Notes: generated from the sequence alone by a model not told the origin. Positions 7,164-51,403 are shown, counted from the stretch's first letter. The stretch: DNA of 64,000 bases from Candidatus Woesebacteria bacterium (GCA_013426185.1 CP058602.1:463123-527122); one strand, 5' to 3'. Program-made: numbers and translations.

Positions 7164-7757
7164 ATGAGTAGACAACAAGTAAAAATACAACCAAACTTAA
7201 GCACTTCAAAGATGCCTGGCGAAAGGCAAAGGGAGTATACGGCATGGCTTCTTTACTGCGAAGCGGGCAGCTACGAAAAGACGCTACGGATGTGGATTGC
7301 GATATACCACCGAACTACCACTGAAATACCACCAATTTTTACAGAAAATCTTGGTAAGCCAGTCAACATAAGAACACTGAAAGATTGGGGCAAAAAGTAT
7401 CAATGGGTAAAAAGAACCGACCTGCGATTAGCTGAGGAATTGGAGGAGTTAAAAATCAAAGCCGATAGAATCAGGCAAAAAAAGAGATTCGAGATAACCG
7501 ATGTCTTTTGGACAAGGCTACAAATGCTTAAAAAGCAAATGCAAAAAGGTGAGATTGTCACAGTTGCTGAGATCAAAGCCCTCTGGGAGATGATGCGTAC
7601 CGAATGGGGTGAGTCTATCGGCAAAACGCAAATCGAACATGGTATAAACCCAGAGGAGCAAAATCCTATCATCGATAGCCTGACTGAAAAGTTATTAAAG
7701 ATTTATAGACAAGAGCGTGATGAACAACGACGCAGAAACCATCATAAAAAATCTTGA
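7164..7757 (+). CDS. terminase small subunit candidate
   Basis: Immediately upstream of and overlapping TerL; size 197 aa; basic C-terminus. Confidence 0.4.
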   Translation: MSRQQVKIQPNLSTSKMPGERQREYTAWLLYCEAGSYEKTLRMWIAIYHRTTTEIPPIFTENLGKPVNIRTLKDWGKKYQWVKRTDLRLAEELEELKIKADRIRQKKRFEITDVFWTRLQMLKKQMQKGEIVTVAEIKALWEMMRTEWGESIGKTQIEHGINPEEQNPIIDSLTEKLLKIYRQERDEQRRRNHHKKS

Positions 7758-9291
7758 AAAGGCTGGTGTTGATTACTGGATCGAGCGCAACCAGATCAAG
7801 AACGAGAACGGTCTACCGATTGAGTTCGAAGACCACAGCTTTATGCTGGACATCTATCGGGACAATACCCAAGTGCAGGTAATTCAGAAAGCCTCGCAGG
7901 TGGGTGCAAGCACAATGGAAATTCTCAAAGTGCTGCACACGGCTAGATACCTGGGAGTCAACCAGATTTACACCCTGCCAACAACAGATGATGTCTACAA
8001 GTTTGTGCCGAGCAAAGTCAACCAGATTATAAAAATGAACCCCTGTATTAAGCGGGGAATTAGTCCGAAAGACATCGACTCGGTAGAACAAAAGCAGCTG
8101 GGCAAATCGTTTATCTTCTTCAAAGGTACTTTTACCGAGCGAGAAGCCATTATGCTAACCAGCGATTGTAACATTCACGACGAGCTAGACAAGTCAAAAG
8201 AGGAAGTGGTGCGGGACTACACTTCCCGTATGGGCTACTCGAAAATAAGACGGCAGCACTTCTTCTCCACTCCCACCATCCCTGACTTTGGTATCAACAA
8301 GCTATTTGAACAATCAGACCAGAAACACTGGCGTTTCAACTGCCCCCACTGCTCATTCCGCCAGCATATGGACTGGGAAAAGAATGTTGATGAGAAGCGG
8401 GGTATTTATGTCTGCCAGAAGTGTAAAAAGGAGATTACCCCGCAAGAGATAAACAGATACGGCAGTTGGGAGGCACGCTACCCTGGCAGACCAATCTCAG
8501 GCTACTGGATCAGCCAGATGAACTGCCCATGGAGAACAGCAGCAGACCTAATCAAAGAGAAAGAAGACGCTGAAGATGACACCTACTTCTACAACTATAT
8601 CCTGGGATTGCCTTACTTATCAGCCGAGCAGCGCATTCCAGCCAGCCTGTTCCTGCGCAACTTGACCGACAAAGAAGCCGAAGCAGCTGAAGACTACAAT
8701 GTGATGGGCATCGACACAGGATCAGGCACTGGTAAGGGCAATCATGTGATTATTGGCAATAAAACAGGCATCTTCTGGATGGGCGTATTGACTGACAAAG
8801 AAGGCTCAGACCGCTGGCAACAGACAGCCGAGCTTATAAAATTTTACGACATCAGGGTAACAGTAATTGACGGACAGCCCTACACAGTCGAAGCACTAAA
8901 CCTCGCAAGGCAATTCCCTTACAGGGTCTACCTCTGCTGGTTTAAAGACGATCCAAAAATGCTCGAAATTGTGCGCTTTTTTGATGAGCAAGAAGGCAAG
9001 GAAAAAGACTTGGAGGACGAAATAAAAGTGCTGGCATCCCGAACCAAAATTATCGACGAGACAATAACGGCGCTGCACAAGCACGAAATAAAGTTTGCCA
9101 TGCGTCCAGACAGCCCAACCTTCAAGTTGTTAATCGACCACGCTCAGACAATGTATGCCAGGTCAGTTACCGACAAGCTGGGACAGATAAAGAGAGAGTG
9201 GGCAAACACAGGGGCTAACGACTTTTTTCTAGCATTTATTTACTGGCATATAGCCATGAAGAAACGCAACAAGTATGAGCCAAACAAATAA
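7717..9291 (+). CDS. terminase large subunit, GpA (lambda/P2-like) family
   Basis: Walker A-like KASQVGAST (cf. lambda gpA KSARVGYS); CPHC...C..C motif; GIDTGSGTG nuclease-domain motif; size 524 aa. Confidence 0.7.
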   Translation: MMNNDAETIIKNLEKAGVDYWIERNQIKNENGLPIEFEDHSFMLDIYRDNTQVQVIQKASQVGASTMEILKVLHTARYLGVNQIYTLPTTDDVYKFVPSKVNQIIKMNPCIKRGISPKDIDSVEQKQLGKSFIFFKGTFTEREAIMLTSDCNIHDELDKSKEEVVRDYTSRMGYSKIRRQHFFSTPTIPDFGINKLFEQSDQKHWRFNCPHCSFRQHMDWEKNVDEKRGIYVCQKCKKEITPQEINRYGSWEARYPGRPISGYWISQMNCPWRTAADLIKEKEDAEDDTYFYNYILGLPYLSAEQRIPASLFLRNLTDKEAEAAEDYNVMGIDTGSGTGKGNHVIIGNKTGIFWMGVLTDKEGSDRWQQTAELIKFYDIRVTVIDGQPYTVEALNLARQFPYRVYLCWFKDDPKMLEIVRFFDEQEGKEKDLEDEIKVLASRTKIIDETITALHKHEIKFAMRPDSPTFKLLIDHAQTMYARSVTDKLGQIKREWANTGANDFFLAFIYWHIAMKKRNKYEPNK

Positions 9292-11508: not shown

Positions 11509-11530
11509 AGCGGAGCGGAAGGTCAGAGTC

Positions 11531-11560
11531 AGTCCCCCGCAAGGGGGGCTGGCTTGTTTT
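11531..11560 (+). terminator. rho-independent terminator
   Basis: CCCCC-GCAA-GGGGGG stem-loop followed by TTGTTTT. Confidence 0.6.
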
Positions 11561-11572
11561 AGGGGAAAAGTT

Positions 11573-11619
11573 GGAAAAGTAGGAAAAAACTTGACTTCCT
11601 ACTAGATTTGATGATAATT
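11573..11619 (+). promoter_or_regulatory. GTTGGAAAAGTAGGAAAAAA direct repeat plus promoter TTGACT-17-ATAATT
   Basis: -35 at 11591..11596, -10 at 11614..11619; repeat family shared with 9957 and 16078. Confidence 0.45.
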
Positions 11620-11644
11620 AGGGTACAATTAAGCTATAAGACTT

Positions 11645-14068: not shown

Positions 14069-14186
14069 TTGCATTTTTCTTTGAGACTTTGTTAGAATGA
14101 AGGCAGCAAAGTAATCCGCCTGACGAATTTATCGGGGCTTAGGTTTTTTTACTCACCAGAGTAGGAAAACCCAAGCCCCGTTTTTT
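14069..14186 (+). promoter_or_regulatory. late leader module: promoter (TTGCAT-18-TAGAAT), conserved 22-mer GCCTGACGAATTTATCGGGGCT, intrinsic terminator (14134..14186)
   Basis: Promoter 14069..14098; 22-mer 14118..14139 identical to 17119..17140; GGGGCTTAGG...CCCAAGCCCC stem plus T6. Confidence 0.5.
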
Positions 14187-14201
14187 ATTGGAGAAAAACC
14201 T

Positions 14202-16073
14202 ATGCCAGAAGTCAAAGAAGAAAAAGTCACACAACCAGGGCGCTACGAACCGCCAGAAGCAGACGCAAAACTTATCGAGAAGTGGCAAAAAAGGTTCAAG
14301 CGAGCTAAAGAATTCCGAGAGCCATACCAGGCAAAATGGCTGAGGCTGTATCAGTTATACCGAGCCTACCAGCACAAGGTTAACTACGCCTACAATACCC
14401 GCCTGATGCCCCCGATTGCCTTCGAAATCGTCAAAACAGTCGTGTCCAGGCTGGCAAGCGCCAAGCGCAAGACAAGAATCCTGCCAAGAGAGAAAACCGA
14501 CCTTAACTCCCCAGCGCTGGATTCCTGGGATAACCTAGTCAACTACGACTTTGACATCATCGACCTGGCAAAGAAACTCCCCAGCTGGATCGAAGCCTCA
14601 ACCTTATACGGCAACGGCATCGTGAAGCTGGCATGGAAAGTGCTGACCACAACTGATAACGATGGAAAGGTAACTACAATTTTTGATGACCCCAGCATGA
14701 GCCTGTGTGATCTGTGGGATATCCTCCCCGCTCCTGAAACCACCGACCTGCAGGAGGACTGTCCCTGGTTAATCCACCGCATCGTCAAACCCAAAGCCCG
14801 AATCGAAAAAGAAGAAAAAGCCAGAGGCGAAAATAGGATTTATAAAAACCTGGAGTATGTCGAAGACAAGATCGTCGAAGACTGGAAGAAAGAGCGCTAC
14901 GAGATAAACGCCAAAAAGATGGCTCAGATGGGCGGGGGCGAAAAGGAAAACGCATCAGGCGAGAGCAAAATCCTCCCCGAAAAGTCCGAAGGCGAAAAGC
15001 AGGTCGAAATCTGGGAATGCTGGGACTGGGAAGACGACAAGCTCGTCGTGATTATGAACCAGGAAGTCCTCACCAGGGATGACGAGAACCCATACCTTGC
15101 GATCAACGGTGGGCGGATCTTCGTCGACCTGCCAGACATGCCTCTGCTTTGGGAATTCTGGGCGACAGGTCACATTGAACCAGTCGAAACCACTATTCTG
15201 GAGATCGCAGACCTTCGTAACCAGCGTATGGATGACATCGTTCTTATGCTTGACCCAGTAGTCAAAATCAGGAAGGAATCAGGCATAACCAAAAACGATA
15301 TAGTCTTTGCGCCAGGCGCAGTCTGGGAGCTGAGGAAAATGGACGACGCCGTAATAGAAAGACCGCCTGAAATAAGCCTCATGGGAGTAAACGAAGACAA
15401 ACTGATGCGAGACGAGATAAGCCGAACCCTGGCACTTGGCGAGTATATGCAGGGCATACCACAAAGCGCACAAGAGCCACTCGGCAAGGTGGCAATGCTT
15501 CTGGGGCAAAGCAACCTGCGCCTGAGCATGAATGCCCAGAACATCGGGATCGCACTCACCCAGGTAGCCAACATCCTCATCGAAATGAACCGAGAGTTTA
15601 TCGATAAAGACAAGCTCTATCGAGTCGTGGGCGAGGAAGTCGACTTCAAAGAATTCAAGGCAAAGGATAAAGAGGTAAAGGTAGATGCCATCGTCACAGT
15701 TGACCCAGTCATTCCACCCGACCAAACAGCCAGAATAAACCAAATCCTAATGCTCTACGACAAGCTAATCGCCCAAGACAAACCCAACTCCAACGACGAA
15801 AATGAGGTAAAAGTCTGGCTCAAGAGAAAGAGAGAGCTGCAGAAGATGTTGCTGGAGGAGCTGGATCTCGACTCTTATATTGAGGTATTGCTGGGTGCAG
15901 AGCCAGCCGAGGCAGGCACGGAATCAACAGAGACGCCGACAGAACCCAGCGCCGTTGCCCCTGTGTCGCCCGCTGAAGGGTCTTTACCAGCAGAGACGGC
16001 TGGTAATGCCCTCCTAAACGGCATAAAGAGCCGTTTGCAGCAAATTCCCCTCCTAAATAGACTCGTAAGCTAG
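14202..16073 (+). CDS. portal protein (putative)
   Basis: 623 aa, position between packaging and head genes, acidic C-terminus; preceded by the regulated leader. Confidence 0.5.
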   Translation: MPEVKEEKVTQPGRYEPPEADAKLIEKWQKRFKRAKEFREPYQAKWLRLYQLYRAYQHKVNYAYNTRLMPPIAFEIVKTVVSRLASAKRKTRILPREKTDLNSPALDSWDNLVNYDFDIIDLAKKLPSWIEASTLYGNGIVKLAWKVLTTTDNDGKVTTIFDDPSMSLCDLWDILPAPETTDLQEDCPWLIHRIVKPKARIEKEEKARGENRIYKNLEYVEDKIVEDWKKERYEINAKKMAQMGGGEKENASGESKILPEKSEGEKQVEIWECWDWEDDKLVVIMNQEVLTRDDENPYLAINGGRIFVDLPDMPLLWEFWATGHIEPVETTILEIADLRNQRMDDIVLMLDPVVKIRKESGITKNDIVFAPGAVWELRKMDDAVIERPPEISLMGVNEDKLMRDEISRTLALGEYMQGIPQSAQEPLGKVAMLLGQSNLRLSMNAQNIGIALTQVANILIEMNREFIDKDKLYRVVGEEVDFKEFKAKDKEVKVDAIVTVDPVIPPDQTARINQILMLYDKLIAQDKPNSNDENEVKVWLKRKRELQKMLLEELDLDSYIEVLLGAEPAEAGTESTETPTEPSAVAPVSPAEGSLPAETAGNALLNGIKSRLQQIPLLNRLVS

Positions 16074-16077
16074 TAGT

Positions 16078-16124
16078 CAGAAAGGTAGGAAATGTTTGAC
16101 TTCCTCAGATAAAGTAGGTATGCT
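16078..16124 (+). promoter_or_regulatory. CAGAAAGGTAGGAAA motif plus promoter TTGACT-17-TATGCT
   Basis: -35 at 16096..16101, -10 at 16119..16124; same motif family as 9957 and 11573. Confidence 0.45.
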
Positions 16125-16164
16125 TACACTTGCCAGCTCTTTAACAACTTAAGGAGAGTGTCAG

Positions 16165-16554
16165 ATGAAGAAACGACTGATGGCAGCACTGCTCCTCGTA
16201 GCAGTGGCTCTAACGACTGTAGTGGGCGTCGCCTACGCAGTCACCCAACCTGTCGAGTGGGCGGACAACCCCAATAGCTGGCGATACTCGCTAGACTACA
16301 TGGGGATGGGGTATGCAGAATGCGACTGGAACGATTACGGGTTCGAACTCGTCAAGACTTTCAGCGCAGACCCCGAACGCTACCGCATCTACTCCTTCAA
16401 CAGCCAGGTTGCCAACGCCTTCCGCAACAAATCCGTGATGGGCTATCAACTCGAAACACCCTACGATGCCTACATCTGCACAGGCTTCACGGATACCTGG
16501 AACGCAGGCGGTCCTGGTAATGTCGAGTCTTACCTATTCGTTTGGGTTCAGTAA
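16165..16554 (+). CDS. small secreted protein, moron
   Basis: Signal peptide MKKRLMAALLLVAVALTTVVGVAYA. Confidence 0.45.
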   Translation: MKKRLMAALLLVAVALTTVVGVAYAVTQPVEWADNPNSWRYSLDYMGMGYAECDWNDYGFELVKTFSADPERYRIYSFNSQVANAFRNKSVMGYQLETPYDAYICTGFTDTWNAGGPGNVESYLFVWVQ

Positions 16555-16691
16555 TAAGCTACTGATTACCCAGACAATCGTGTAACATCCATCTGAGAGC
16601 TGGCAAACGAGGAGGTAGACTATTTGTCTACATCATGCCTACATTGGCACACCAAACAGACACACTGTCTACCTCCTCAACTCTCTTAAAG

Positions 16692-16719
16692 TTGACAAAA
16701 AGAGTTAAATTGATATACT
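16692..16719 (+). promoter_or_regulatory. sigma70-like promoter TTGACA-16-TATACT
   Basis: Consensus hexamers upstream of 16734 ORF. Confidence 0.4.
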
Positions 16720-16733
16720 TAGAAAAGGAGAAT

Positions 16734-17060
16734 ATGAGAGACGAAAGAAAAAGCAAAAAAACAGCATTAAAACTTCTCCTCACCATCGCCATTGTCGCAA
16801 TCTTTTTTTACTATCTCTGGCAACAGGATATCGTAGGAAGCCAGGGAAAGCTCTACCCCACGAAAGAAAAAATGTGTGCCGAGTTTGCGCAGAGCTACCT
16901 GAGAACAATCCAAAAAGTCGAACCCAACTTCAACGATGAAAAATGGCAAAGAGCCGTCGACATTGAAACAGAGCTGCACAAACTTTGCACCCTTGATCTC
17001 TCCCAAGAAGCCATCAAAGGTTATAAACCCACTGCTTTGGACAAATATCGAAACCAATGA
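16734..17060 (+). CDS. membrane-anchored small protein, moron
   Basis: Probable start MRDERK with SD AAAAGGAG (ORF track gives 16635); TM LKLLLTIAIVAIFFYYLW. Confidence 0.4.
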   Translation: MRDERKSKKTALKLLLTIAIVAIFFYYLWQQDIVGSQGKLYPTKEKMCAEFAQSYLRTIQKVEPNFNDEKWQRAVDIETELHKLCTLDLSQEAIKGYKPTALDKYRNQ

Positions 17061-17064
17061 TCAC

Positions 17065-17195
17065 TTGACATTTGTTGCCAGGGTTTATTACAATGAAAAT
17101 AGTTAAATAGAAGACCAAGCCTGACGAATTTATCGGGGCTAAGACTTCTAGACATACGCATTAAGCGTGTGCTTAGGAGTTTTAGCCCCTTTTTT
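17065..17195 (+). promoter_or_regulatory. late leader module 2: promoter (TTGACA-18-TACAAT), conserved 22-mer, intrinsic terminator (17135..17195)
   Basis: Promoter 17065..17094; 22-mer 17119..17140; GGGGCTAA...TTAGCCCC stem plus T-run. Confidence 0.5.
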
Positions 17196-17217
17196 GTTGG
17201 CAAGGAGGTGAAAAAAT

Positions 17218-17619
17218 ATGCTCGAACAGCTAAACCAATCGGTAAAAAAAGTAAATCTAGTCCCCATCCAAACTACAACCACGACCATCACAGGAAGCGG
17301 AGTCGATACTTACCTCAGTGCTAAACCAGCCTTTGATTCAGCCTTAATTCTTGCCGAGATCGGTAACCTCGGAGATCAGTCGTCCACGAAAGTGAAGATT
17401 GAAGAATCAGACGCTTCAGACTTTAGCTCTGGTGTAAGCGTCGCCAAAGGCGGAGACGAAGTGACTGTCGCAGCTGACAACAGTTATCAATTTCAAGTTG
17501 AGAGGAGCAAGCGATATTTAAGAGCGGTGGTGACGATCACAGGAGGCATATCGCCGTCAGCAGAGGTGTTTGTTGGAGGACTTTTGTGGAACGCCCAAAG
17601 ACCGTTCCCAATGCTATAA
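17218..17619 (+). CDS. hypothetical head-module protein
   Basis: SD CAAGGAGGTGA; Thr-rich N-terminus. Confidence 0.35.
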   Translation: MLEQLNQSVKKVNLVPIQTTTTTITGSGVDTYLSAKPAFDSALILAEIGNLGDQSSTKVKIEESDASDFSSGVSVAKGGDEVTVAADNSYQFQVERSKRYLRAVVTITGGISPSAEVFVGGLLWNAQRPFPML

Positions 17620-18506: not shown

Positions 18507-18719
18507 ATGCCATACGGAATCAAAGGAAAAACAAAAAAATGGGAGGAAGGGACAAAGACAGGACAAAAGCTCGACGCCCGAATTGAAAAGTGTGTCGCAG
18601 CAAAAATGGCTGACCCTGACTTTAAGTCCCAGGAAGGCAGAACCAAAAAGGAATCAGCCATCGCAGTCTGCAAGACAGCAATTACCAGATCAAAGGAATT
18701 TAGTAAGCAACTAAAGTGA
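18507..18719 (+). CDS. hypothetical small basic protein
   Basis: ORF with TAAAAACTATG context. Confidence 0.3.
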   Translation: MPYGIKGKTKKWEEGTKTGQKLDARIEKCVAAKMADPDFKSQEGRTKKESAIAVCKTAITRSKEFSKQLK

Positions 18720-19605: not shown

Positions 19606-20772
19606 ATGCCATCAGCAACAGGAATCAGAGGAACAACTGAATTAGGAGTAACCAGGCGATATGATGTCGCCGATGTAGTGTCGTTATTGGATGTCAACAG
19701 GTATCCCCTGTTAGCGATTTTGACCAATGCAGGAAAAGACCCAGTGACTAAGCAAGGCAAAGCCATGAAGAAAGTGGAAACAACCGATCCACAGTTTAAG
19801 TGGTTTGAGGATGAATTCGGAAAGAGACAATTAACAGGGTCAGGCACAGTTGATCCAGACGGAGGCAACCTAACAGTGACAGCGCAATCTGTATACCTAC
19901 AGGTTGGAGATGTAATCCTAGTAGCAGCACAGAAGTGGGTATTCCAGGTAACTGCCATTGTCGATGCTAACACAGTTACGGTGGGAGCAGAGCTGGGAGG
20001 GGCAACAGGAGCAGCAGCCTCAGCAGTAGGAGATGTCTGGCTTATCGGAAACGCCAACGAGGAAGGTGCGGGATTGAGAGACATCAAGTCCACCACGATA
20101 GCCGAACTTTACAACTACTGCCAGATCTTCAGAACACCAGTGGGCATCACGGAAACCGCCAAGAACACCAAGAGTTGGACAAAAGAAAATGATTTCGACT
20201 ATCAGAGACGCAAGAAAGCCATCGAACATATGGTCGATATAGAGCGAGCTTTTATCTTCGGCAAGAGAGGAATCATCACAACAGGAACGCATCCCAAGAG
20301 GTTTACCGCTGGAATTCTAAGCAGAATTAGCACTTACGCCACAGCTAATGTGGACACGGAAGCGGAATTCGAAACATGGCTCGAAAGTCTATTCGCACAC
20401 GGAAATGTGGAGAAATACCTCTTTGCAGCAGCCAGTGTAGTCTCGATGATCAATAACTGGGCAAAAGGGAAACTCCAGGTCATGCCGAAAGACAAGACCT
20501 ACGGATTGAACATTGTGACCTACGAATCGCCACACGGAACGCTGCACATAATCAAGCATCCATTATTGACAGGGACGACCTATGGAAACTACGCCATTGG
20601 ACTGGACATGGAGTGCTTAACATACCGCTACCTTAGCAATCGTGACACCAAACTCTTGACTAATCGTCAAGCGCCAGGCGAAGACAGCCAGGTAGATGAG
20701 TATTTAAGCGAAGTCGGACTGCAAATGGAACAAGAAAGTCGCCACGCCATCATGAGCATGGGCGCTCTCTAA
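19606..20772 (+). CDS. major capsid protein (putative)
   Basis: 388 aa after the scaffold gene; strong SD; followed by two hairpins (20829..20888). Confidence 0.55.
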   Translation: MPSATGIRGTTELGVTRRYDVADVVSLLDVNRYPLLAILTNAGKDPVTKQGKAMKKVETTDPQFKWFEDEFGKRQLTGSGTVDPDGGNLTVTAQSVYLQVGDVILVAAQKWVFQVTAIVDANTVTVGAELGGATGAAASAVGDVWLIGNANEEGAGLRDIKSTTIAELYNYCQIFRTPVGITETAKNTKSWTKENDFDYQRRKKAIEHMVDIERAFIFGKRGIITTGTHPKRFTAGILSRISTYATANVDTEAEFETWLESLFAHGNVEKYLFAAASVVSMINNWAKGKLQVMPKDKTYGLNIVTYESPHGTLHIIKHPLLTGTTYGNYAIGLDMECLTYRYLSNRDTKLLTNRQAPGEDSQVDEYLSEVGLQMEQESRHAIMSMGAL

Positions 20773-20938: not shown

Positions 20939-21541
20939 ATGATGACTGATCAAGAAAGTAAAGCACTAAAAGACATGAGCATGTCGAAACTCTGGGCAGA
21001 AGCCAAGAGGCTCGACGTATCCAATAAAGGAAAAAAAGATGAGCTTATCGCCCGTTTGAGAGAAGCCCAAGAGGAAGGGGGTGAAAACAGTATGCCTAAT
21101 AAAGATAAACTAAAAGCAACCAAGAAAACCGAACAGCCCAAAGAGGAAACATTCATCTCGAAGTATCACGAGCTAAGATTGGTAAACAAATCCGCCTACA
21201 ACAAAGAGGTGAGTGGCAGAGTAATTACTGTTCCAGGGACTTCAATCCAGTTCCATGAAGGAGTCTACAGGACTAGCGATCCTGACGAGATAGCCTTCCT
21301 TGAAAGTCACCCTAACTTCGGAAACACCTTTGTCAAGATTGAAAAAAAAGACCAAAAGAAAGCGGTTGATGAAGTAATTGCCGAGCGTTACAAGGACTTA
21401 GAGGCTCGTGAGAAAGAACTCGCAGCTAGAGAGGCAGCTCTGAAAAAGAAAGAAATGGCAGCCAAAGGGCAAGAAGAAGGCGCAGAGATGCAAAAAGTGA
21501 AAACTGGCGTTAGAAGCACGGCTGACCAGCCGAAGTTTTAA
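20939..21541 (+). CDS. protein with N-terminal SAP/Rho-N (HeH) DNA-binding motif
   Basis: MSKLWAEAKRLDVSNKGKKDELIARL resembles Rho_N/SAP helix-extension-helix. Confidence 0.4.
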   Translation: MMTDQESKALKDMSMSKLWAEAKRLDVSNKGKKDELIARLREAQEEGGENSMPNKDKLKATKKTEQPKEETFISKYHELRLVNKSAYNKEVSGRVITVPGTSIQFHEGVYRTSDPDEIAFLESHPNFGNTFVKIEKKDQKKAVDEVIAERYKDLEAREKELAAREAALKKKEMAAKGQEEGAEMQKVKTGVRSTADQPKF

Positions 21542-22513: not shown

Positions 22514-22795
22514 ATGCAAGAAAGCGACGCAGCATTATTAGAACAAATCATAAAATCCTTTGTCGATGAGCCAGATAAGGTGAAAGTTGAACGCACAGTC
22601 GACGAGATGGGAGTGCTTCTTTTAGTCAAACTTGACGAAAAAGACGCAGGTTTGGTGATCGGAAAGGAAGGCAGCACAATAGCAGCGCTTCGCAAGATTA
22701 TGGGAGTAATTGGAATGAAGACCAATGCTAGATACAACATTAAGCTGGATGTCCCGCCTGACAAAAAAAGAGGGAGCAATAACTCCCAAAGTTAA
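22514..22795 (+). CDS. KhpA/YlqC-like KH-domain RNA-binding protein
   Basis: FVDEPDKVKVERTVDEMGVLLLVKLDEKDAGLVIGKEGSTIAALRKI matches UPF0109/KhpA (VDhPeeVkV...GkVIGKqGr.I.AiR); SD AAAGGAGGTGA. Confidence 0.6.
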   Translation: MQESDAALLEQIIKSFVDEPDKVKVERTVDEMGVLLLVKLDEKDAGLVIGKEGSTIAALRKIMGVIGMKTNARYNIKLDVPPDKKRGSNNSQS

Positions 22796-31296: not shown

Positions 31297-34200
31297 ATGC
31301 CGACATTTTGGGAAACGCTAAAAACAAACATATTAAACCCTCTTGAAAAGGGTGTCTCTTCCGTTGGGCAAACTCTGGGCGATATTTTCAAACCAGTCGG
31401 GCAAACAGCCATTGATCTTTTCAAGCCAATAGCAGCTCTCAAACCAGAGCAATCGGAATTTGGCATTAAAACAGAGCAGGGCGAATATAAACCATACACG
31501 AATATCTATCTTGAAGCAGCAGCTCAGACTATTGGACTAGGCGCAAGAAAGACTGACTTTTGGGAGCGCCTCCCCCACGCCTACTACGGCACAGTCTTGG
31601 GCTTTGGAGCGGGGCTGGCAAAAGCCTTCACCTTCGGCTGGTGGAATCCAGAGCTTAAATTCGAACATGACGCAGCCCAAATGGGAGCAAATCTCGGCAA
31701 AGTTGAAGGCGACATTATAGGGACTATAGGAACATTCCTCGTGGGCGGAGAAATCGTTCAAGGAGCAGCCAGGAGCATTCCTGTAGTTGCTAGATTTGCC
31801 AAAATTGCACCCAAAACTTACTCACTACTGACAAACGGACTAACATTCGCAGGACTAGGTCAACTCCAAAAAGACGAATTCTATAAGGACGCTACCCAGC
31901 GTGCCACAGACTTTGGAGCTGATTTTGCCCTGGGAGGGGTATTCTCAATAGCGGGCATGAAGCCCAGTTATTTCAAATCGACAGGAATTATCGCTCCAGC
32001 AGCTTATGTCACCTCGCTTATAAAGGGAGACACTCCAGAGGACGCCTTAAAAAACACAGTCGCTGTCATCGGATTACACTCGGTTAACTATGCCGTCGCC
32101 AAAGTCTTCCCTAGCCAAGCCGAGCGAATCAGGCGCAATATGGAAAAAGCAGCCGAGAACGAACTGCGCACCACCCAAAAAGAAGCCAGGGCATTTCTGG
32201 GAGTGACGGAAAAATCGACGCCAGAACAAATAAAATCCGCCTGGAAACAAAAGGTTATTGAAATAACCAAGAAGTTTCCAGCTCAGGCATACCAGACGCC
32301 ACAACAGGCTGCCCGATTTAACCAAGAGTGGAACACTGCTAACAGAGCCTATGAGTTCCTGGCAAAAGTTCAGAACCCTACAGGCTACACAGGCAAAACT
32401 TTCAGCCAGGAATTCGAGGACTTATTTAGAGAGCTGTGGATCAATGTCCCAGACAAGAGAGCGCTAGTGGTAAGCGCCGTCAGAAACATGCCAGCAGGAC
32501 TCTCAATCCGCCCCACCCTAACTAACGAGCAGAGAGCCGAAATTATAAAAGGGCTTGGCGGAGAAAATGTAAGAACCAAGTTCGGACTGCCAGCAGGCAA
32601 GCTCTCAAACTCTGATCTTATAACCCTAGCAAAAGAGCAAAACATAAAGGTGACGCCATCCAAAGGCACTCCAGAACAGGCAATCGCTGAAGCAGCCAAA
32701 ACTCCCCCACCATCCAAACCAAAAGTTGAAAGAACCGAAATCTGGAATGTGCCAGGGGATCTCATGCCAGCAAGAGGCAAGCCAACCTGGAAGCACAGCA
32801 AGATGCTCTGGAACACCATGCGCAATCAATACGGCATGACCAATGTCTGGGGAAAAGATATCACCACTAACAAGGGGGCGGTTTCCTGGATTATAGACAC
32901 CCTCGAAAATGGACTGGCAAGCAAAAAAGACTTGCTGACTGAAGCCAGAAAAACCAAAGGGGTGCGCATGGACAGCCATCAATACAAGAAGCTCTACGCC
33001 ATGTTTAAGTCTAGAAACTACGACATCGAAGGCTACAAAAAAGTGATGGCAACTTTAAAAGGAATTAAACCTGCAGTGGTTGAAAAAACGATAGAGCCAA
33101 CACCTAAGGGAATGTTGGAGGAACTGGGCAACTATACCAAAGAGGCAGAAGTTATTGTCAGAGAGCCAAAAATTGAACCCAAAACTAAAATAAAACCGAT
33201 AGAAGAAGTGGTCACTCTTTATCATGGCACAACACCTGAAAATGCAGCCATAATTCGAAAAACAGGCTTCGAACTGAAACCGCCAGTGCATGGACGGCAA
33301 GTTATCGGAGAAGGGGTCTACCTTACTCCAACCAAGGAGGAAGCAGCCACCTTCGGTAAAGAAATAATCGAGGCGACACTTAAACCAGGAGTTAAAATCC
33401 TGCACCTAAATAACCCAGGTGAATACTATCAGCTCTGGCAAAAAGTGGCAAAAGAAGCAGGAGCATTCGGGGCAAAAGAAGTAAACATGGACAAAGCCAT
33501 AAGCGACTGGCTGAAAGTGAGAGGCTACGGCGGGATCGAGGTCAAAGGCTTCGGAACAAAAGGTGAAACCTATATCTCGATATTCGATCCAAAAAACATC
33601 GAGGTTAAAACAACTAAAGCACCAGTTGCAGCATCCGCCAAAAAAACGAAGGCTGAACCAAAAGTATTAGGTAAAGTGACTCCCCAGATCGAGCAGCTGC
33701 AGAAGAAGAAAGACGCTCTTGAAAAATTGCACTACGCCAACCCAGGCGATCAAAAGATCGTCAACGCAATAAAGAAAATCGATAACCAGATAGCCCAGCA
33801 ATTCAGCACCCAGGAGCAGAAGGCAGCCAAAGCCGAGCAAATCAGGCTTAAATACCGACCCGAAGAAAAGGAACTCCTGGATGCAGAGCGAGTCCCAAGT
33901 GTCGGTGAAATCCTAAAAAGCAAAAAATTCAAAGACAGAATCGCTGGCAAGGTAAAGGCATCAAAAGAAATGCGTGCTGACGAACTAACAACCACCCCAT
34001 CAAGAAACCCGCCACGACCACCGAAAGAAGAACCTCTCAGTCAAGCGCCTCCTCCGCCAGAAGGAAGCGGGTTGGAGGCAATCGACAAGATGGTCGGTAA
34101 GATCGGCGCACCACAAAAGATGACAGAGTGGTTCAAAGGTCTCAAACCGAAATTCAGTCGCAACTTTACAGACAGATTTGCAGCAATGAAGACTTTCGAG

Positions 34201-36684
34201 GAAAACCTGAGTAAAGCAGCAGGTAAACCGATAGACATCAACTCCAGCCCCTATGTAGGAATGCGGTTGTATGCGGGCAGATTTGGCACAATAGAGGCAG
34301 CTTTCCGAAATCTGCAAAAGATAGTGACGCCAGTGAGGAAATTCCGACCAGACTTCACCCGCTATGTGCTGGCGCAGCGTGCCATTGAAAGAGCCGATAG
34401 AGGCTTTGACAACCCAGCAGGCGTGACTAAAGATCAGGCAGAGCAAGCACTGGTAGAGTTAAAACCCAAAGTTGGAGATAAAGTATTCAAGCAGTTCGAA
34501 CAGGTAGGACAAGCGATCCAAAACTGGTCGATCAGAGAAATCCTAGAGCCGATGCGAGATACAGGACTTATAAGCAAAAAAGCCTTCAATGCCATAGTCG
34601 AAAAAAACAAGAACTGGATGCCATTCCATGTCCTCGACTACCTACCCGATGTGCATCAGGCAGACAAAATGCAGTCAGGCAGCGAAACCTTCTCAGTCAG
34701 TAAACAAGGAGTAATTAAAGGATTAAAAGGCACAGAAAAACAAATCCGTGACCCCTTCGAGTCGATAGTAGATAATTTAAGTAAAGCGGTGAGTTTGATC
34801 AAAAGAAACGAGGTAGCCCGTAAATTCATCGACCTGCGAAACAAATATCCAGAAGCCAAAGAAACCATCAAATACCTACATGGAGATGCCAAAGCACCAA
34901 GAGACTACGACACCATCAGTGTATTTATAAACGGCAAGTCGACCCGCTGGGCAGTACCAAAAGACTTAAGCGAGGCAATGCACGGCATGAATCCAGTCGA
35001 GGCAGGCGTCCTGGGCAAGTTGGCATTAGCATCAACCAAAGCATTCAAATCAGGCGTAACCACTTTATATATCCCATTCACCCTGACCAACGCTATCAGG
35101 GACTACCAAACAGCAACGATAGTCAATAAGTGGGGCTTTAATCCAGCCAACTGGCTGTCAGGATTCAAAGACGGCATAAAAGGAGCGTTTAAATGGGAGT
35201 CGAAAGCCTACACCGACTTTATGAAGAACCAGGGAGGTTACGGAGGCTACATCAGTAACGCCAGGCAGCTATCGATAGCATCAAAGGAATTGTTCACACC
35301 AACTTGGTGGATAAAAACCAAAGCAGTTATCAATCCGTTTAATTTAATCAGTAACTTTGCCGAGGCAGTAGAACTCGCACCCCGTCTGGGTATTTATAAA
35401 AAGGGTGTTAAAAAACCAGGAGTAACCGAGCTGGAAGCTGCCTTTGAAGCTAGAAACGCTACAGTCGATTTCGCAAAAGCAGGTAAAGAGATGCGGATTA
35501 TAAACCAGTGGATTCCCTTTGTGAACGCCAGATGGCAAGGATTACTCCGAGTCAAAGACGCCTTTAAAGAGCATCCGTTCAAGTCAGCAATAAAAGCGAT
35601 GGCGCTTATCGTTGCCCCAGGAGTAGCAACCTATTTTTACAATATCCTCAACCACGAAGAGCTGTGGGATGATATTCCGCAATGGGCAAAAGACCAATAC
35701 TTTATCATCATTCTCGGATCGGAAATTAACGAAGAAGGCAAAACAGTTCCAAAGGTGCTGCAAATTCCTAAAGGCGACATGGGGCAGATTTTTTACAACC
35801 CCATCGAATACGCCTTCGAGTATGTGAGAAAGCAAGAACCAGCCAACCTTCTGAAACTGGCAGTCGAGTGGACAAGCCAGCTTTCACCGATTCCTTTCAG
35901 TAGGGATGGCGAACTATCAGGCAGTGCATTCCTAGCAGGAGCGTTGCCCCCAGCTCTAAAAACTCTTGTTGAAGAAGTCACTAACATGAATATGTTCACA
36001 GGCTTCCCGATAATTCCCAGGAAACTGGAGAAAGTAGCACCAACAGAGCAATACAACGAAAAAACACCAGAGCTGATGGTGATGCTGGGTCGATCCCTCG
36101 GCTGGAGTCCAATGCGAATAGCGCATGTGTTAAGCGGTCTGTTTGGCTCAAGTAGCCGTTATGTCTACAACCCGACCGACCTGTTTGGAGCATCGGTTGA
36201 AAGATTTATAAGAACCCAGGGAGGAGCAAAGGAACGGGAAGCATGGAAGGTAAAAGACGATGCCGAGATTGGCTATAACACCACCCGACTGTTTGTTCAG
36301 CAAGCCCTGCAAGCAGGCGATCTGCAGAAAGCACAAAGCCTGGCTACCGAGTGGAACGCCAAAGCCCAGCAATTCATTCCCCTGATCGTGCCGTATTTAT
36401 ATGCCGATGATCCCAAAGAAGCGGTGAGCTTCCAAAAAAGCATCATGTTTGACCAATCAGACCTGCAACGGCTATTAAAACTTAATGCCCCGCAAACCAA
36501 ACCAGGAACAGCCGTAAAGCCACCTGTGGGGGCTGTGAGCGCACCAAAGACGCAAAACGACCCATTAGGGCTATTCGGAGGCGCAAGCGCAGCAACACCC
36601 ACACCACAGCCAACAATGGGGCAAATATTCCCGACAGGGGGCGGGGCAACAAACCAAAATGATCCGTTGGGATTGTTTAAATAA
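31297..36684 (+). CDS. giant (1795 aa) multidomain virion protein (tape-measure or ejection-protein candidate) with J-domain-like segment and putative H-Y-E ADP-ribosyltransferase-like domain
   Basis: Gly-rich hydrophobic N-terminal region; AFLGVTEKSTPEQIKSAWKQKV...ANRAYEFL J-like segment without HPD; LYHGTTPEN...GEGVYLTPT...IEV resembles the diphtheria-toxin/PARP H-Y-E core (SYHGTKPGY...GFYST...); C-terminal NDPLGLF x2. Confidence 0.5.
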   Translation: MPTFWETLKTNILNPLEKGVSSVGQTLGDIFKPVGQTAIDLFKPIAALKPEQSEFGIKTEQGEYKPYTNIYLEAAAQTIGLGARKTDFWERLPHAYYGTVLGFGAGLAKAFTFGWWNPELKFEHDAAQMGANLGKVEGDIIGTIGTFLVGGEIVQGAARSIPVVARFAKIAPKTYSLLTNGLTFAGLGQLQKDEFYKDATQRATDFGADFALGGVFSIAGMKPSYFKSTGIIAPAAYVTSLIKGDTPEDALKNTVAVIGLHSVNYAVAKVFPSQAERIRRNMEKAAENELRTTQKEARAFLGVTEKSTPEQIKSAWKQKVIEITKKFPAQAYQTPQQAARFNQEWNTANRAYEFLAKVQNPTGYTGKTFSQEFEDLFRELWINVPDKRALVVSAVRNMPAGLSIRPTLTNEQRAEIIKGLGGENVRTKFGLPAGKLSNSDLITLAKEQNIKVTPSKGTPEQAIAEAAKTPPPSKPKVERTEIWNVPGDLMPARGKPTWKHSKMLWNTMRNQYGMTNVWGKDITTNKGAVSWIIDTLENGLASKKDLLTEARKTKGVRMDSHQYKKLYAMFKSRNYDIEGYKKVMATLKGIKPAVVEKTIEPTPKGMLEELGNYTKEAEVIVREPKIEPKTKIKPIEEVVTLYHGTTPENAAIIRKTGFELKPPVHGRQVIGEGVYLTPTKEEAATFGKEIIEATLKPGVKILHLNNPGEYYQLWQKVAKEAGAFGAKEVNMDKAISDWLKVRGYGGIEVKGFGTKGETYISIFDPKNIEVKTTKAPVAASAKKTKAEPKVLGKVTPQIEQLQKKKDALEKLHYANPGDQKIVNAIKKIDNQIAQQFSTQEQKAAKAEQIRLKYRPEEKELLDAERVPSVGEILKSKKFKDRIAGKVKASKEMRADELTTTPSRNPPRPPKEEPLSQAPPPPEGSGLEAIDKMVGKIGAPQKMTEWFKGLKPKFSRNFTDRFAAMKTFEENLSKAAGKPIDINSSPYVGMRLYAGRFGTIEAAFRNLQKIVTPVRKFRPDFTRYVLAQRAIERADRGFDNPAGVTKDQAEQALVELKPKVGDKVFKQFEQVGQAIQNWSIREILEPMRDTGLISKKAFNAIVEKNKNWMPFHVLDYLPDVHQADKMQSGSETFSVSKQGVIKGLKGTEKQIRDPFESIVDNLSKAVSLIKRNEVARKFIDLRNKYPEAKETIKYLHGDAKAPRDYDTISVFINGKSTRWAVPKDLSEAMHGMNPVEAGVLGKLALASTKAFKSGVTTLYIPFTLTNAIRDYQTATIVNKWGFNPANWLSGFKDGIKGAFKWESKAYTDFMKNQGGYGGYISNARQLSIASKELFTPTWWIKTKAVINPFNLISNFAEAVELAPRLGIYKKGVKKPGVTELEAAFEARNATVDFAKAGKEMRIINQWIPFVNARWQGLLRVKDAFKEHPFKSAIKAMALIVAPGVATYFYNILNHEELWDDIPQWAKDQYFIIILGSEINEEGKTVPKVLQIPKGDMGQIFYNPIEYAFEYVRKQEPANLLKLAVEWTSQLSPIPFSRDGELSGSAFLAGALPPALKTLVEEVTNMNMFTGFPIIPRKLEKVAPTEQYNEKTPELMVMLGRSLGWSPMRIAHVLSGLFGSSSRYVYNPTDLFGASVERFIRTQGGAKEREAWKVKDDAEIGYNTTRLFVQQALQAGDLQKAQSLATEWNAKAQQFIPLIVPYLYADDPKEAVSFQKSIMFDQSDLQRLLKLNAPQTKPGTAVKPPVGAVSAPKTQNDPLGLFGGASAATPTPQPTMGQIFPTGGGATNQNDPLGLFK

Positions 36685-38287: not shown

Positions 38288-38551
38288 CTACTTCTCCTTC
38301 TCACCAAACCTCTCGCTGTTTTTTAGTAATCGATTCAGGGCTTTATTTAAATCCTGGACGGTCTCAACCTTCAAGATATGAAACGAGGAAGAATGAACAT
38401 TCCCCACAAACACTAAAGTATCCCCCTCATTAAGCTCAAGGTCTTTTCTCATTTTGGCGGGGATCACAACCTGACCCTTCGCACCTAGAGTGGATGTGCC
38501 GTAAATGGCAGCGTTTTTTTTGATAGCCATAAAATCTGGGATTTTTTTCAT
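38288..38551 (-). CDS. AbrB/SpoVT-domain regulator (candidate lysogeny regulator or antitoxin)
   Basis: GAKGQVVIPAKMRKDLELNEGDTL matches the swapped-hairpin AbrB/MazE motif. Confidence 0.6.
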   Translation of the reverse strand: MKKIPDFMAIKKNAAIYGTSTLGAKGQVVIPAKMRKDLELNEGDTLVFVGNVHSSSFHILKVETVQDLNKALNRLLKNSERFGEKEK

Positions 38552-38952: not shown

Positions 38953-40023
38953 TTACTTCTTAAGAGAAATATTGAAGGAAAAGCCGTCGTTCCGCTCGGT
39001 TAGAGTGTAATCAAAACGCTCGTCACCATGCAATCTGAAAGACTTAATCTCCTCTTTGACACTCTCGATAATAGCATGCGGGTCTTGGGACTTGCGAATA
39101 AGCGGGTGCTTAAGCATCGCCTGGCGGAGATCGTCGGTGACCATGTGAGTATAGATCATGGTAGTATCAACCTTGCGGTGACCAACAATCCGCTGGACTT
39201 TTGAGATAGCCACATCCTGACGCAAGAGTTCGGTTATAAAACTATGGCGAAAACTATGGGCGTGAAAGCGCCGATCGACATGAAGCCCAGCTCGTTTGGC
39301 ACGCTCTCGAATAGTCTTATTAACCATAGACTCGCCGATGCGTGAATTAGGGCGGGTGCGGGCAAAATGCATAGTTATAAACATCGGCGAAGAAGGTGGA
39401 ATCTCACCCCTGTTTTTAATCCACTCCCGCAATTTCTCAATCATATCAGGAGGAATAGGCACGATGCGCTGCTCATCAGTTTTAGTCTCACGGATAATAA
39501 ACTCATTCGTGCCAAAGTTAAAATCGCCCACATTTAGGGCGATTACTTCTCCAACACGGCAACCAGTCTTGGCAAGGAACTCCAGGAGCAAACCCCACAT
39601 GTAGTCGCATTTAATATACTTGGGATGCAAATCCCGCTCGTAGTTATTTTTATGAGGGGGCGGATTGATGATTTTCTCAATCTCTTCCAACGAAAGGGTC
39701 TGGTATAAAACGATTTTCTTCTTGGGACGAAGCTGGTTCAGGTTAGAAGTGCAATCCTCTAAAGGCAAATGCTTCTCGGCAATAAGGAAGCGGATGAATG
39801 AGTTGAGGGAAGTGATTAGGACATGGATATAGTTAGGAGACAAATCGCTTCTTTTATACTCCCGCAGGAGCAGTCGTATATTTTCAAACGAGAACTCCCG
39901 ACCACCCAGGTCACGAAAGAAGCGCTCTAGCCACTGCCTCCGCACTTTGCATGTATGATCGGTGAGGTCTCGGTCATAGCGAATAAAATCAATGTATTCC
40001 GAGAGGTATTTTTGATAGCTCAT
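38953..40023 (-). CDS. int: tyrosine recombinase / phage integrase
   Basis: Catalytic R (TGCRVGE), HxxR (HAHSFRHS), Y (TMIYTHM); N-terminal SAM-like core-binding domain. Confidence 0.9.
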   Translation of the reverse strand: MSYQKYLSEYIDFIRYDRDLTDHTCKVRRQWLERFFRDLGGREFSFENIRLLLREYKRSDLSPNYIHVLITSLNSFIRFLIAEKHLPLEDCTSNLNQLRPKKKIVLYQTLSLEEIEKIINPPPHKNNYERDLHPKYIKCDYMWGLLLEFLAKTGCRVGEVIALNVGDFNFGTNEFIIRETKTDEQRIVPIPPDMIEKLREWIKNRGEIPPSSPMFITMHFARTRPNSRIGESMVNKTIRERAKRAGLHVDRRFHAHSFRHSFITELLRQDVAISKVQRIVGHRKVDTTMIYTHMVTDDLRQAMLKHPLIRKSQDPHAIIESVKEEIKSFRLHGDERFDYTLTERNDGFSFNISLKK

Positions 40024-51329: not shown

Positions 51330-51403
51330 CGGGGATTAGTTTAACGGTAGAATAGGCGCATGGGGTGCGTCTGGCCTGGGTTCAATTCCCAGATCCCCGA
51401 CCA
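51330..51403 (+). tRNA. tRNA-Pro (anticodon GGG)
   Basis: Acceptor CGGGGAT/ATCCCCG plus ACCA; anticodon arm GGCGC-AUGGGGU-GCGUC; T arm CTGGG-TTCAATT-CCCAG. Confidence 0.8.

Follow-up and report, generated by a model that had tools for sequence, protein, structure and literature searches.

Paired leader modules with candidate transcription attenuators before the late structural genes of a Woesebacteria prophage

We analysed a stretch of 64,000 nucleotides (nt) from Candidatus Woesebacteria bacterium (GCA_013426185.1 CP058602.1:463123-527122; hereafter the window), in which a prophage starts left of position 1 and ends at about 40 kb, with genes on the + strand. Two paralogous leader modules, one before the portal gene and one before the first gene of the head cluster, bring together a promoter-like element, an identical 22-mer and a long intrinsic terminator. 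On balance, each module is probably a transcription attenuator, that is, a conditional intrinsic terminator, which would gate a late structural operon of the prophage. This reading rests on features of the sequence, namely the anatomy of the modules, their conservation, the covariation of both helices and the folding energetics, and from these we infer promoter activity, termination by default, and the existence and identity of a factor that permits read-through.

Anatomy of the modules and their competing helices

The window holds exactly two copies of the 22-mer GCCTGACGAATTTATCGGGGCT (14118-14139 and 17119-17140), each on the + strand; allowing up to 3 mismatches brought up no third copy, and shuffled sequences gave an expectation of 0. 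An earlier note on this DNA had described an identical 22-mer occurring twice, in paralogous leaders of late structural operons, with a terminator placed between promoter and gene. This description was borne out, as each 22-mer follows a promoter and precedes a hairpin, a run of six T (T6) and a gene, and the terminator lies between promoter and gene in every relative as well. The comparison took in more than 100 related phages and prophages of Patescibacteria; portal-based searches brought up relatives both among viral contigs and, as prophages, in many Patescibacteria metagenome-assembled genomes (MAGs).

In module 1, the promoter-like element at 14069-14098 (+) consists of the -35 hexamer TTGCAT (14069-14074), an 18-nt spacer and the -10 hexamer TAGAAT (14093-14098), and in module 2 the promoter at 17065-17094 (+) consists of TTGACA (17065-17070), an 18-nt spacer and TACAAT (17089-17094). 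Both had been called near-consensus, which holds for module 2 (11/12 consensus positions) and fails for module 1, whose 8/12 positions fall under the threshold of the promoter scan. The element of module 1 is homologous by position to promoter-like elements of all relatives, and the -35 G and the T, A and final T of the -10 hexamer are invariant in 24 sequences with a terminator of its type (type A). Sigma-70-type hexamers with a spacing of 16-18 nt were found, and distant relatives carry TTGACA-17/18-TAAAAT. The -10 hexamer and the 22-mer are 19-24 nt apart; in module 1 this interval is an A-rich leader (14099-14117, +) that varies among relatives, and the transcription start is predicted near 14105; in module 2 it would lie near 17101.

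Module 1 ends with the type A intrinsic terminator (14133-14186, +; hairpin 14133-14180, T6 14181-14186), and module 2 with a type B terminator (17135-17195, +; 25-base-pair (bp) hairpin 17135-17189, T6 17190-17195). The predicted energies of the two hairpins are -32 and -38 kcal/mol (z = -7.3 and -8.7 against shuffles), and both have the anatomy of intrinsic terminators, with GGGGCU:AGCCCC bases, stems of 20-25 bp and T6 directly after the hairpin. Only 10-25 nt separate the T-run from the start codon. Module 1 is followed by a Shine-Dalgarno (SD) sequence, GGAG (14190-14193, +), and the portal gene (14202-16073, +; ATG at 14202), whose product is of the SU10 type (SU10_portal, phrog_332/156). 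Module 2 is followed by the SD sequence AAGGAGGTG (17202-17210, +) and the first gene of the head cluster (17218-17619, +; ATG at 17218), which belongs to phrog_5707, a family with no assigned function. The sole other convincing + strand terminator of the phage (11527-11560) shows the usual order, terminator and then promoter, so the promoter-before-terminator order at both modules stands out.

The minimum-energy fold of the 22-mer (RNAfold) is a bulged hairpin of -6.1 kcal/mol, the same for the window and majority variants. In this fold, stem 1 (G1C2C3U4:G18G19G20C21) is followed by the bulge R5A6, stem 2 (C7G8A9:U15C16G17) and a 5-nt loop made of A10 and four variable bases. The predicted antiterminator hairpin of module 1 (+) accordingly comprises stem 1 at 14118-14121:14135-14138, a GA bulge at 14122-14123, stem 2 at 14124-14126:14132-14134 and the loop at 14127-14131, and that of module 2 (+) comprises stem 1 at 17119-17122:17136-17139, the bulge at 17123-17124, stem 2 at 17125-17127:17133-17135 and the loop at 17128-17132. 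The entire 3' strand of this hairpin (UCGGGGC) doubles as the base of the terminator 5' arm (14133-14139 in module 1), and because this strand is common to both, the small hairpin and the terminator are mutually exclusive. When the small hairpin is enforced, the fold costs about 10 kcal/mol relative to the terminator fold (-21.8 vs -32.7, -28.8 vs -39.1 and -16.8 vs -26.0 kcal/mol), and the helix that remains is set off from the U-tract by 8-9 unpaired nt.

The alternative antiterminator pairing that the earlier note proposed to look for exists, and it covaries. For the small hairpin, covariation was counted on 16 distinct sequences from three clades (alignment A6), in which 100% of the stem 1 cells are paired. 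Compensatory changes convert G1-C21 to A-U in L010, L011 and L255 and C2-G20 to U-A in L035, and a C-to-U change opposite G leaves a wobble pair in L073, L074 and L079. In the expanded clade, where a hairpin with covarying sequence stands in place of the variable loop, this apical hairpin shows double changes at 4/6 pairs. As controls, slid registers were 54-60% paired, and 0/500 shuffles matched the observed values. The terminator shows compensatory changes as well, at four pairs in type A (23 relatives) and at two in type B (10 relatives). An upstream helix with a strand common to the terminator, both helices covarying, is what is generally expected of an attenuator, and it was found here. 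Particularly, in each lineage the box, at the 5' end of the small hairpin, repeats the base of the terminator 3' arm (GCCU vs GCCC/GCCU, ACCU vs ACCU, GUCU vs GUCU), which is the classic arrangement of an antiterminator. The G.U pairs and the one-sided C/U changes point to an RNA helix and not a DNA palindrome.

Other roles for these bases were considered and rejected. A hairpin within the box, GCC[UGAC]GGC, is possible in the expanded clade only, where it is 81% paired with no compensatory change, and the shifted register CCUGA:UCGGG, suggested by the terminator scan, is 80% paired, also with no compensatory change and with an A.C mismatch in most sequences; neither was better than the controls. 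As a -35-like or -10-like DNA element, the box is without a partner hexamer at a promoter-like distance. The likeness of the type A inner stem to an anti-CRISPR RNA or Cas12a repeat mimic is superficial.

Each module also holds a five-codon mini-open reading frame (mini-ORF) whose ATG overlaps the -10 hexamer (MKAAK and stop, 14097-14114; MKIVK and stop, 17093-17110). Counterparts exist in L001, L026 and L032, with none in the majority clade. The mini-ORFs are probably untranslated, since the ATG is upstream of the likely transcription start. Attenuation by a leader peptide was rejected on this ground, and also because the five-codon ORFs are confined to the window clade and missing in most relatives.

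Conservation and distribution among related phages

Across the more than 100 relatives, the leader consensus is GCCU-R-ACGAA-N4-UCGGGGCU, in which 18/22 bases are invariant. All relatives with at least about 69% portal identity and available upstream sequence have GCCT[A/G]ACGAA-NNNN-TCGGGGCT some 80-95 nt before the portal ATG, and down to 58% portal identity every relative has the module ahead of its portal gene. The module-bearing prophage family spans Woesebacteria, Daviesbacteria, Levybacteria, Parcubacteria and Saccharibacteria. The 22-mer forms an invariant island: among 24 sequences of type A and 11 of type B it varies only at position 5 (A/G) and at the four central bases, and the flanking leader, the interiors of the hairpins and the portal coding sequence are all more variable. 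The proposal that the 22-mer is the recognition or regulatory element was upheld to the extent that it is the conserved element of the leader. The exact 22-mer had no match in viral contigs, because the relatives have A at position 5.

Scanning viral and metagenome contigs for the pattern yielded 126 distinct matches, with 43 before a portal gene and more than 33 before a homologue of gene 17218 or an alternative first head-cluster gene. About 35 others are G+C-rich and without the hairpin, and were taken as chance matches in a very large database. None of the 126 lies in the leader of a host gene, and no true instance was found outside the two leader contexts; the wide occurrence at non-leader positions that the earlier note had named as the observation to fear was not seen. 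The type B module of the relatives has homologues of gene 17218 downstream. A single module is found if the portal gene adjoins the head genes (L010, L011, L035 and the expanded clade), and two if other genes come between. As the copy number tracks the separation of portal and head genes, the module follows the starts of late operons, and therefore a cis-acting leader fits better than a free-standing small RNA (sRNA) gene.

The loop bases differ in a way that bears on the history of the two copies. Both window-clade copies read TTTA (TTGA in L001 and L032) and have similar promoters, and in most other phages the portal copy reads TCTA and the head copy ACAA. This pattern suggests that the two copies were recently homogenised in the window clade.

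More divergent relatives keep parts of the element. The intermediate group (L011, L079, L035) and the expanded group (L010, L068, L071-L074, L076, L078, L249-L258) retain YCURACGR and CGRGRYU, and the region between them differs. The leaders of L080, L081, L082 and L106 (about 50% portal identity) and of L256 (63%, differently built) are entirely different in sequence, and they share one design: a strong promoter, one or two small hairpins with a YACG loop, one of whose 3' strands is the base of a long terminator, and then the portal ATG. Most phages at about 40% portal identity are without a terminator before the portal gene. In the expanded clade (L068 2850-3000; L071, L072, L076, L078, L249, L253, L254, L258), a second structured region of about 100 nt, likewise conserved, lies after the first terminator and before the portal ATG; it holds the hairpin GAGGCYUCGGCCUC and another that resembles a terminator, GAGCCGAGC...GGCUCGGCUUUUAUUU.

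A conditional terminator and other explanations

In the mechanism that we favour, a sigma-70-type promoter would start an RNA that opens with 11-18 A-rich, unstructured nt. The next 21 nt would fold into the small bulged antiterminator hairpin (GCCU:GGGC, RA bulge, CGA:UCG, 5-nt loop), and the UCGGGGC strand would then be competed for, as the same nt make the 5'-arm base of a very long terminator beside the U-tract. By itself, the small hairpin (about -6 kcal/mol) would lose, and by default transcription would end after about 80-90 nt, leaving the late genes off. Since the terminator is about 10 kcal/mol more stable, read-through would need a factor that holds the hairpin. Such a trans-acting factor would clamp the small hairpin and block the terminator base, and with the upper helix left 8-9 nt from the U-tract, RNA polymerase would enter the portal and head genes. 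The factor would most likely be a protein reading the invariant RACGAA/UCG face; it is the invariance of these unpaired or bulged nt that suggests a sequence-specific reader.

Several observations weigh against this reading. The promoters, start sites and termination are predicted by the rules of E. coli and B. subtilis, and the hosts are uncultivated Patescibacteria. The structure was derived from the same sequences on which it was tested, most positions of the 22-mer are invariant and so uninformative on pairing, and the double-compensatory events in stem 1 comprise two independent ones only. In L075/L276 (IMGVR_UViG_3300035698_027858), the promoter and the long terminator are kept and the CCUGACG box is replaced by an A-rich stretch; L075 is a natural box-loss variant usable as a control. 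The second terminator-like hairpin of the expanded clade could not be bypassed by a purely local mechanism. Finally, in Pfam and PHROG scans of about 60 prophage ORFs (the left end of the prophage lies beyond the window), no ANTAR, CAT/BglG (CAT/PRD), Q, N or NusG-like domain was detected, and no candidate for the trans-acting factor was confirmed among these ORFs.

The gene that the earlier note had named as an example of a possible factor, a KhpA-like gene at 22514-22795 (+), is a weak candidate only. It encodes a genuine KH domain (Pfam PF13083, E = 3e-17) with an intact GXXG loop (GKEG) and is syntenic in every minimal-clade locus that reaches its position. Of the distant relatives, L098, L104 and L106, whose leaders run promoter-terminator-portal, carry the gene, and 17 module-less loci do not. 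Yet it is missing from the box-bearing expanded clade, where both flanking genes are present in 10/10 loci, and it is present in L075, where the box is lost. As a universal factor the KH protein was rejected, since neither loci extending 10 kb to either side nor two whole-collection scans showed it in the expanded clade, and it can at best be a clade-specific player. Its gene sits inside the structural gene block, which is unusual for phages, and is without a PHROG family. The invariance of 18 nt across phages that are otherwise very different could be explained by a factor of the host or by RNA polymerase itself. Two further approaches to the factor were abandoned: de novo clustering of ORFs for a gene co-occurring with the module returned only clade-specific structural genes, confounded by phylogeny, and the first gene after module 2, tried as an N-like basic protein, encodes an acidic one (pI, the isoelectric point, 4.85).

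Known attenuators offer the closest likeness. In the BglG-SacY-LicT systems, a ribonucleic antiterminator (RAT) hairpin with a consensus of about 29 nt is bound by a CAT-domain protein. As in RAT, the module has a weak leader hairpin whose 3' strand is the terminator 5' arm, and would terminate by default until binding of a factor blocks the terminator. Unlike RAT, its sequence is unrelated to the consensus, its hairpin has 7 bp and a 2-nt bulge, it precedes phage late genes and not sugar operons, and CAT/PRD was not found by Pfam in the prophage ORFs. ANTAR antiterminators (AmiR, NasR, EutV) recognise a dual hexaloop RNA motif with A1 and G4 in the loop (PMC8934654). Small hairpins exclusive with a terminator are common to ANTAR systems and to the module, and stabilisation by a protein, established there, is our proposal here. 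The leaders of L081, L082, L106 and L256 resemble ANTAR targets in their two tandem small hairpins with a conserved YACG loop motif. However, the loops are of 4-5 nt and not hexaloops, the window has one hairpin per module, and no ANTAR domain was found in Pfam scans of the prophage. We therefore file the module as one that works like RAT/CAT and ANTAR without being a member of either, because the defining sequence and protein features are not present. Of the two mechanisms named in the earlier note, attenuation at the RNA level is the one favoured by the RNA helix and its covariation, and Q/qut-like processive antitermination is not; RAT- or ANTAR-like attenuation appears to be the better fit.

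If antitermination were processive, as in the N/nut, put, Q or LoaP systems, the hairpin or its DNA would be a loading site at which a phage factor, or the RNA itself, modifies RNA polymerase, and the modified polymerase would pass this and all later terminators over the late region of about 20 kb. We consider this unlikely, although the layout invites it: the element is promoter-proximal, and the succession of promoter, short RNA, terminator and long late operon mirrors lambda PR'-tR', where the promoter of the PR'-qut-tR' region lies beside the late genes and a short terminated RNA is made until a regulator permits the long structural operon. The two copies after two promoters compare with putL and putR, as lambda N/nut and HK022 put also rely on a promoter-proximal RNA element, in two copies per phage, for terminator read-through (PMC9378689), a function that is proposed here. 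The second terminator-like hairpin of the expanded clade would be beyond a local switch and within the reach of a processive one. Against this, no Q, N or NusG-like gene was detected in the scanned prophage ORFs (a Q homologue included, with the left end beyond the window), and the Q/qut-like logic of the earlier note found no support. Lambda Q attaches to promoter DNA and requires a sigma-dependent pause, and here we have an RNA element with G.U pairs, compensatory changes and a terminator overlap, and two gates per genome. By inspection, no conserved TAnnnT of a -10-like pause element was seen in the box (TAACGA has no final T), and the promoter spacers are not conserved between clades. Unlike lambda nut, the module has no boxA-like CGCUCUUA, and its loop of A and four variable nt is not a GNRA-like boxB loop; a similarity to rrn boxA was dismissed as a gapped resemblance lying partly within the variable N4. 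A single 21-nt bulged hairpin also differs from HK022 put, which has about 65 nt with two stem-loops and acts protein-free (PMC9378689). The nut and put sites do not overlap the terminators that they suppress, whereas the 22-mer does, and the sharing of the 3' strand with the terminator base is kept through covariation and even in unrelated sequences, which local competition predicts and a loading site does not need. Finally, the stems of 20-25 bp are of the kind that resists conAn-type antitermination: terminator stems longer than 14 bp resisted conAn, the sole processive antitermination system tested in PMC10325885. The module resembles conAn in that a leader element opens a long operon of a mobile element and in its unusually long terminator stems (>14 bp), but the long-stem terminator of pLS20 marks an operon end and resists antitermination (PMC8191782, PMC10325885), whereas here the long stems stand at operon starts and are paired with a base-sequestering hairpin. 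Such stems favour a mechanism at the stem base, since sequestering the base would still disable them.

The remaining alternatives drop the switch, or its protein. If the terminators were constitutively leaky, or insulators with a role in RNA processing or stability (RNase III sites, 5' stabilisers), they would halt transcription arriving from upstream genes and fix read-through at a low level, and the 22-mer would be conserved for processing or protein binding apart from termination. RNase III acts on stems of a size range that includes 20-25 bp, the ribosome-binding site comes directly after the hairpin, the sequence of the hairpin interiors is more conserved than pairing demands, and L075 retains the terminator without the box. 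We nevertheless think it quite improbable, as it leaves unexplained the conserved promoter just upstream in every lineage and the box covarying with the terminator 5' arm as an alternative helix, and as capsid genes need a high late expression that a fixed strong terminator would prevent. The architecture is also that of a typical bacterial sRNA gene, and a short terminated RNA would be the main default product under any model, so that the modules could be two paralogous stand-alone sRNA genes (about 85 nt) whose 5' region acts in trans as a seed or protein decoy, with incidental neighbours. However, in more than 100 instances the element is always directly 5' of the ATG of the portal or first head gene, with the T-run 10-25 nt away, and its copy number follows the number of late operon starts. 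Moreover, the supposed seed has the 4 most variable nt at its centre, and no complementary target with up to 3 mismatches was found on either strand of the window, which makes this explanation very unlikely. Least probable, and in our judgement only marginally worth entertaining, is a small-molecule riboswitch with the bulged hairpin (and the apical hairpin in the expanded clade) as an aptamer stabilised by its ligand against the terminator. The mutually exclusive antiterminator and terminator helices, the invariant unpaired nt and ACGR-type motifs that recall guanidine-II riboswitch loops are in its favour, but a 21-nt hairpin with a 5-nt variable loop is below the size of any validated aptamer, and the motif is present before phage structural genes only, never before metabolic or transporter genes. 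With Rfam, at gathering and permissive thresholds, the sole gathering-level match in the window was a tRNA and nothing over the modules reached even E < 1; eight related leaders gave no relevant match, and mini-ykkC was matched in neither. Guanidine-II (mini-ykkC, ACGR loops) was rejected on the missing covariance-model match and because, in the window type, ACG lies outside a closed tetraloop.

Within attenuation by a hairpin-holding factor, the small hairpin with its invariant RACGAA/UCG face could be the target of a hitherto unknown kind of antiterminator in Patescibacteria phages, minimal and unrelated to N, Q, put, RAT, ANTAR and LoaP, with the KH protein, where present, or host RNA polymerase or a Nus factor as the reader. 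We offer this as a speculative idea that is rather unlikely to hold in full.

Gene regulation in Patescibacteria (Candidate Phyla Radiation) and in their phages is almost unknown, because both hosts and phages are uncultivated. Against this background, the motif is a candidate cis-regulatory RNA for the timing of late genes, comparatively well supported, in a prophage family that is widespread among Patescibacteria. It flags the starts of late operons for annotation, and the 21-nt motif can be used as bait for finding the regulator. A terminator stem of 20-25 bp with a base-sequestering hairpin leader has been kept over deep phage divergence, and as a very compact, presumably switchable terminator, it can be tested in heterologous systems.

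Prophage setting and further observations

The early genes of the prophage include a Rad52-like gene, a replication initiator and a ParB-methylase, and TerL is encoded at 7717-9291 (+). A Candidatus Woesebacteria MAG encodes a protein with 100% identity to the portal protein. In the head cluster opened by gene 17218, an SU10-type major capsid protein is encoded at 19606-20772, and the structural block also has a tail protein with an amidase domain. A small basic protein is encoded at 18507-18719. The product after the capsid gene (20939-21541) has a weak SAP/Rho_N-like N-terminal motif (E = 1e-4 and 1.5e-3, below the cut-offs) and is kept in all relatives, including those without a module. A 1795-aa protein with an LPD38 domain (31297-36684) gave a weak PARP/ADP-ribosyltransferase-like match (E = 3e-4, under the Pfam cut-off) and may be an injected polyvalent protein. 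At the right end of the prophage are a MazE/AbrB-like small protein (38288-38551, -) and a tyrosine integrase (38953-40023, -), beyond which host genes including a ribosomal protein cluster follow. The sole tRNA of the window, tRNA-Pro (51330-51403), lies 11 kb from the prophage end and probably does not serve as the attachment site.

A second paralogous pair of promoter-like elements was observed at 11574-11620 and 16080-16125, with GAAA-GTAGGAAA-(2-3 nt)-TTGACTTCCT in common. They precede genes 11645 and 16165, and the first of them comes after the terminator at 11527-11560.

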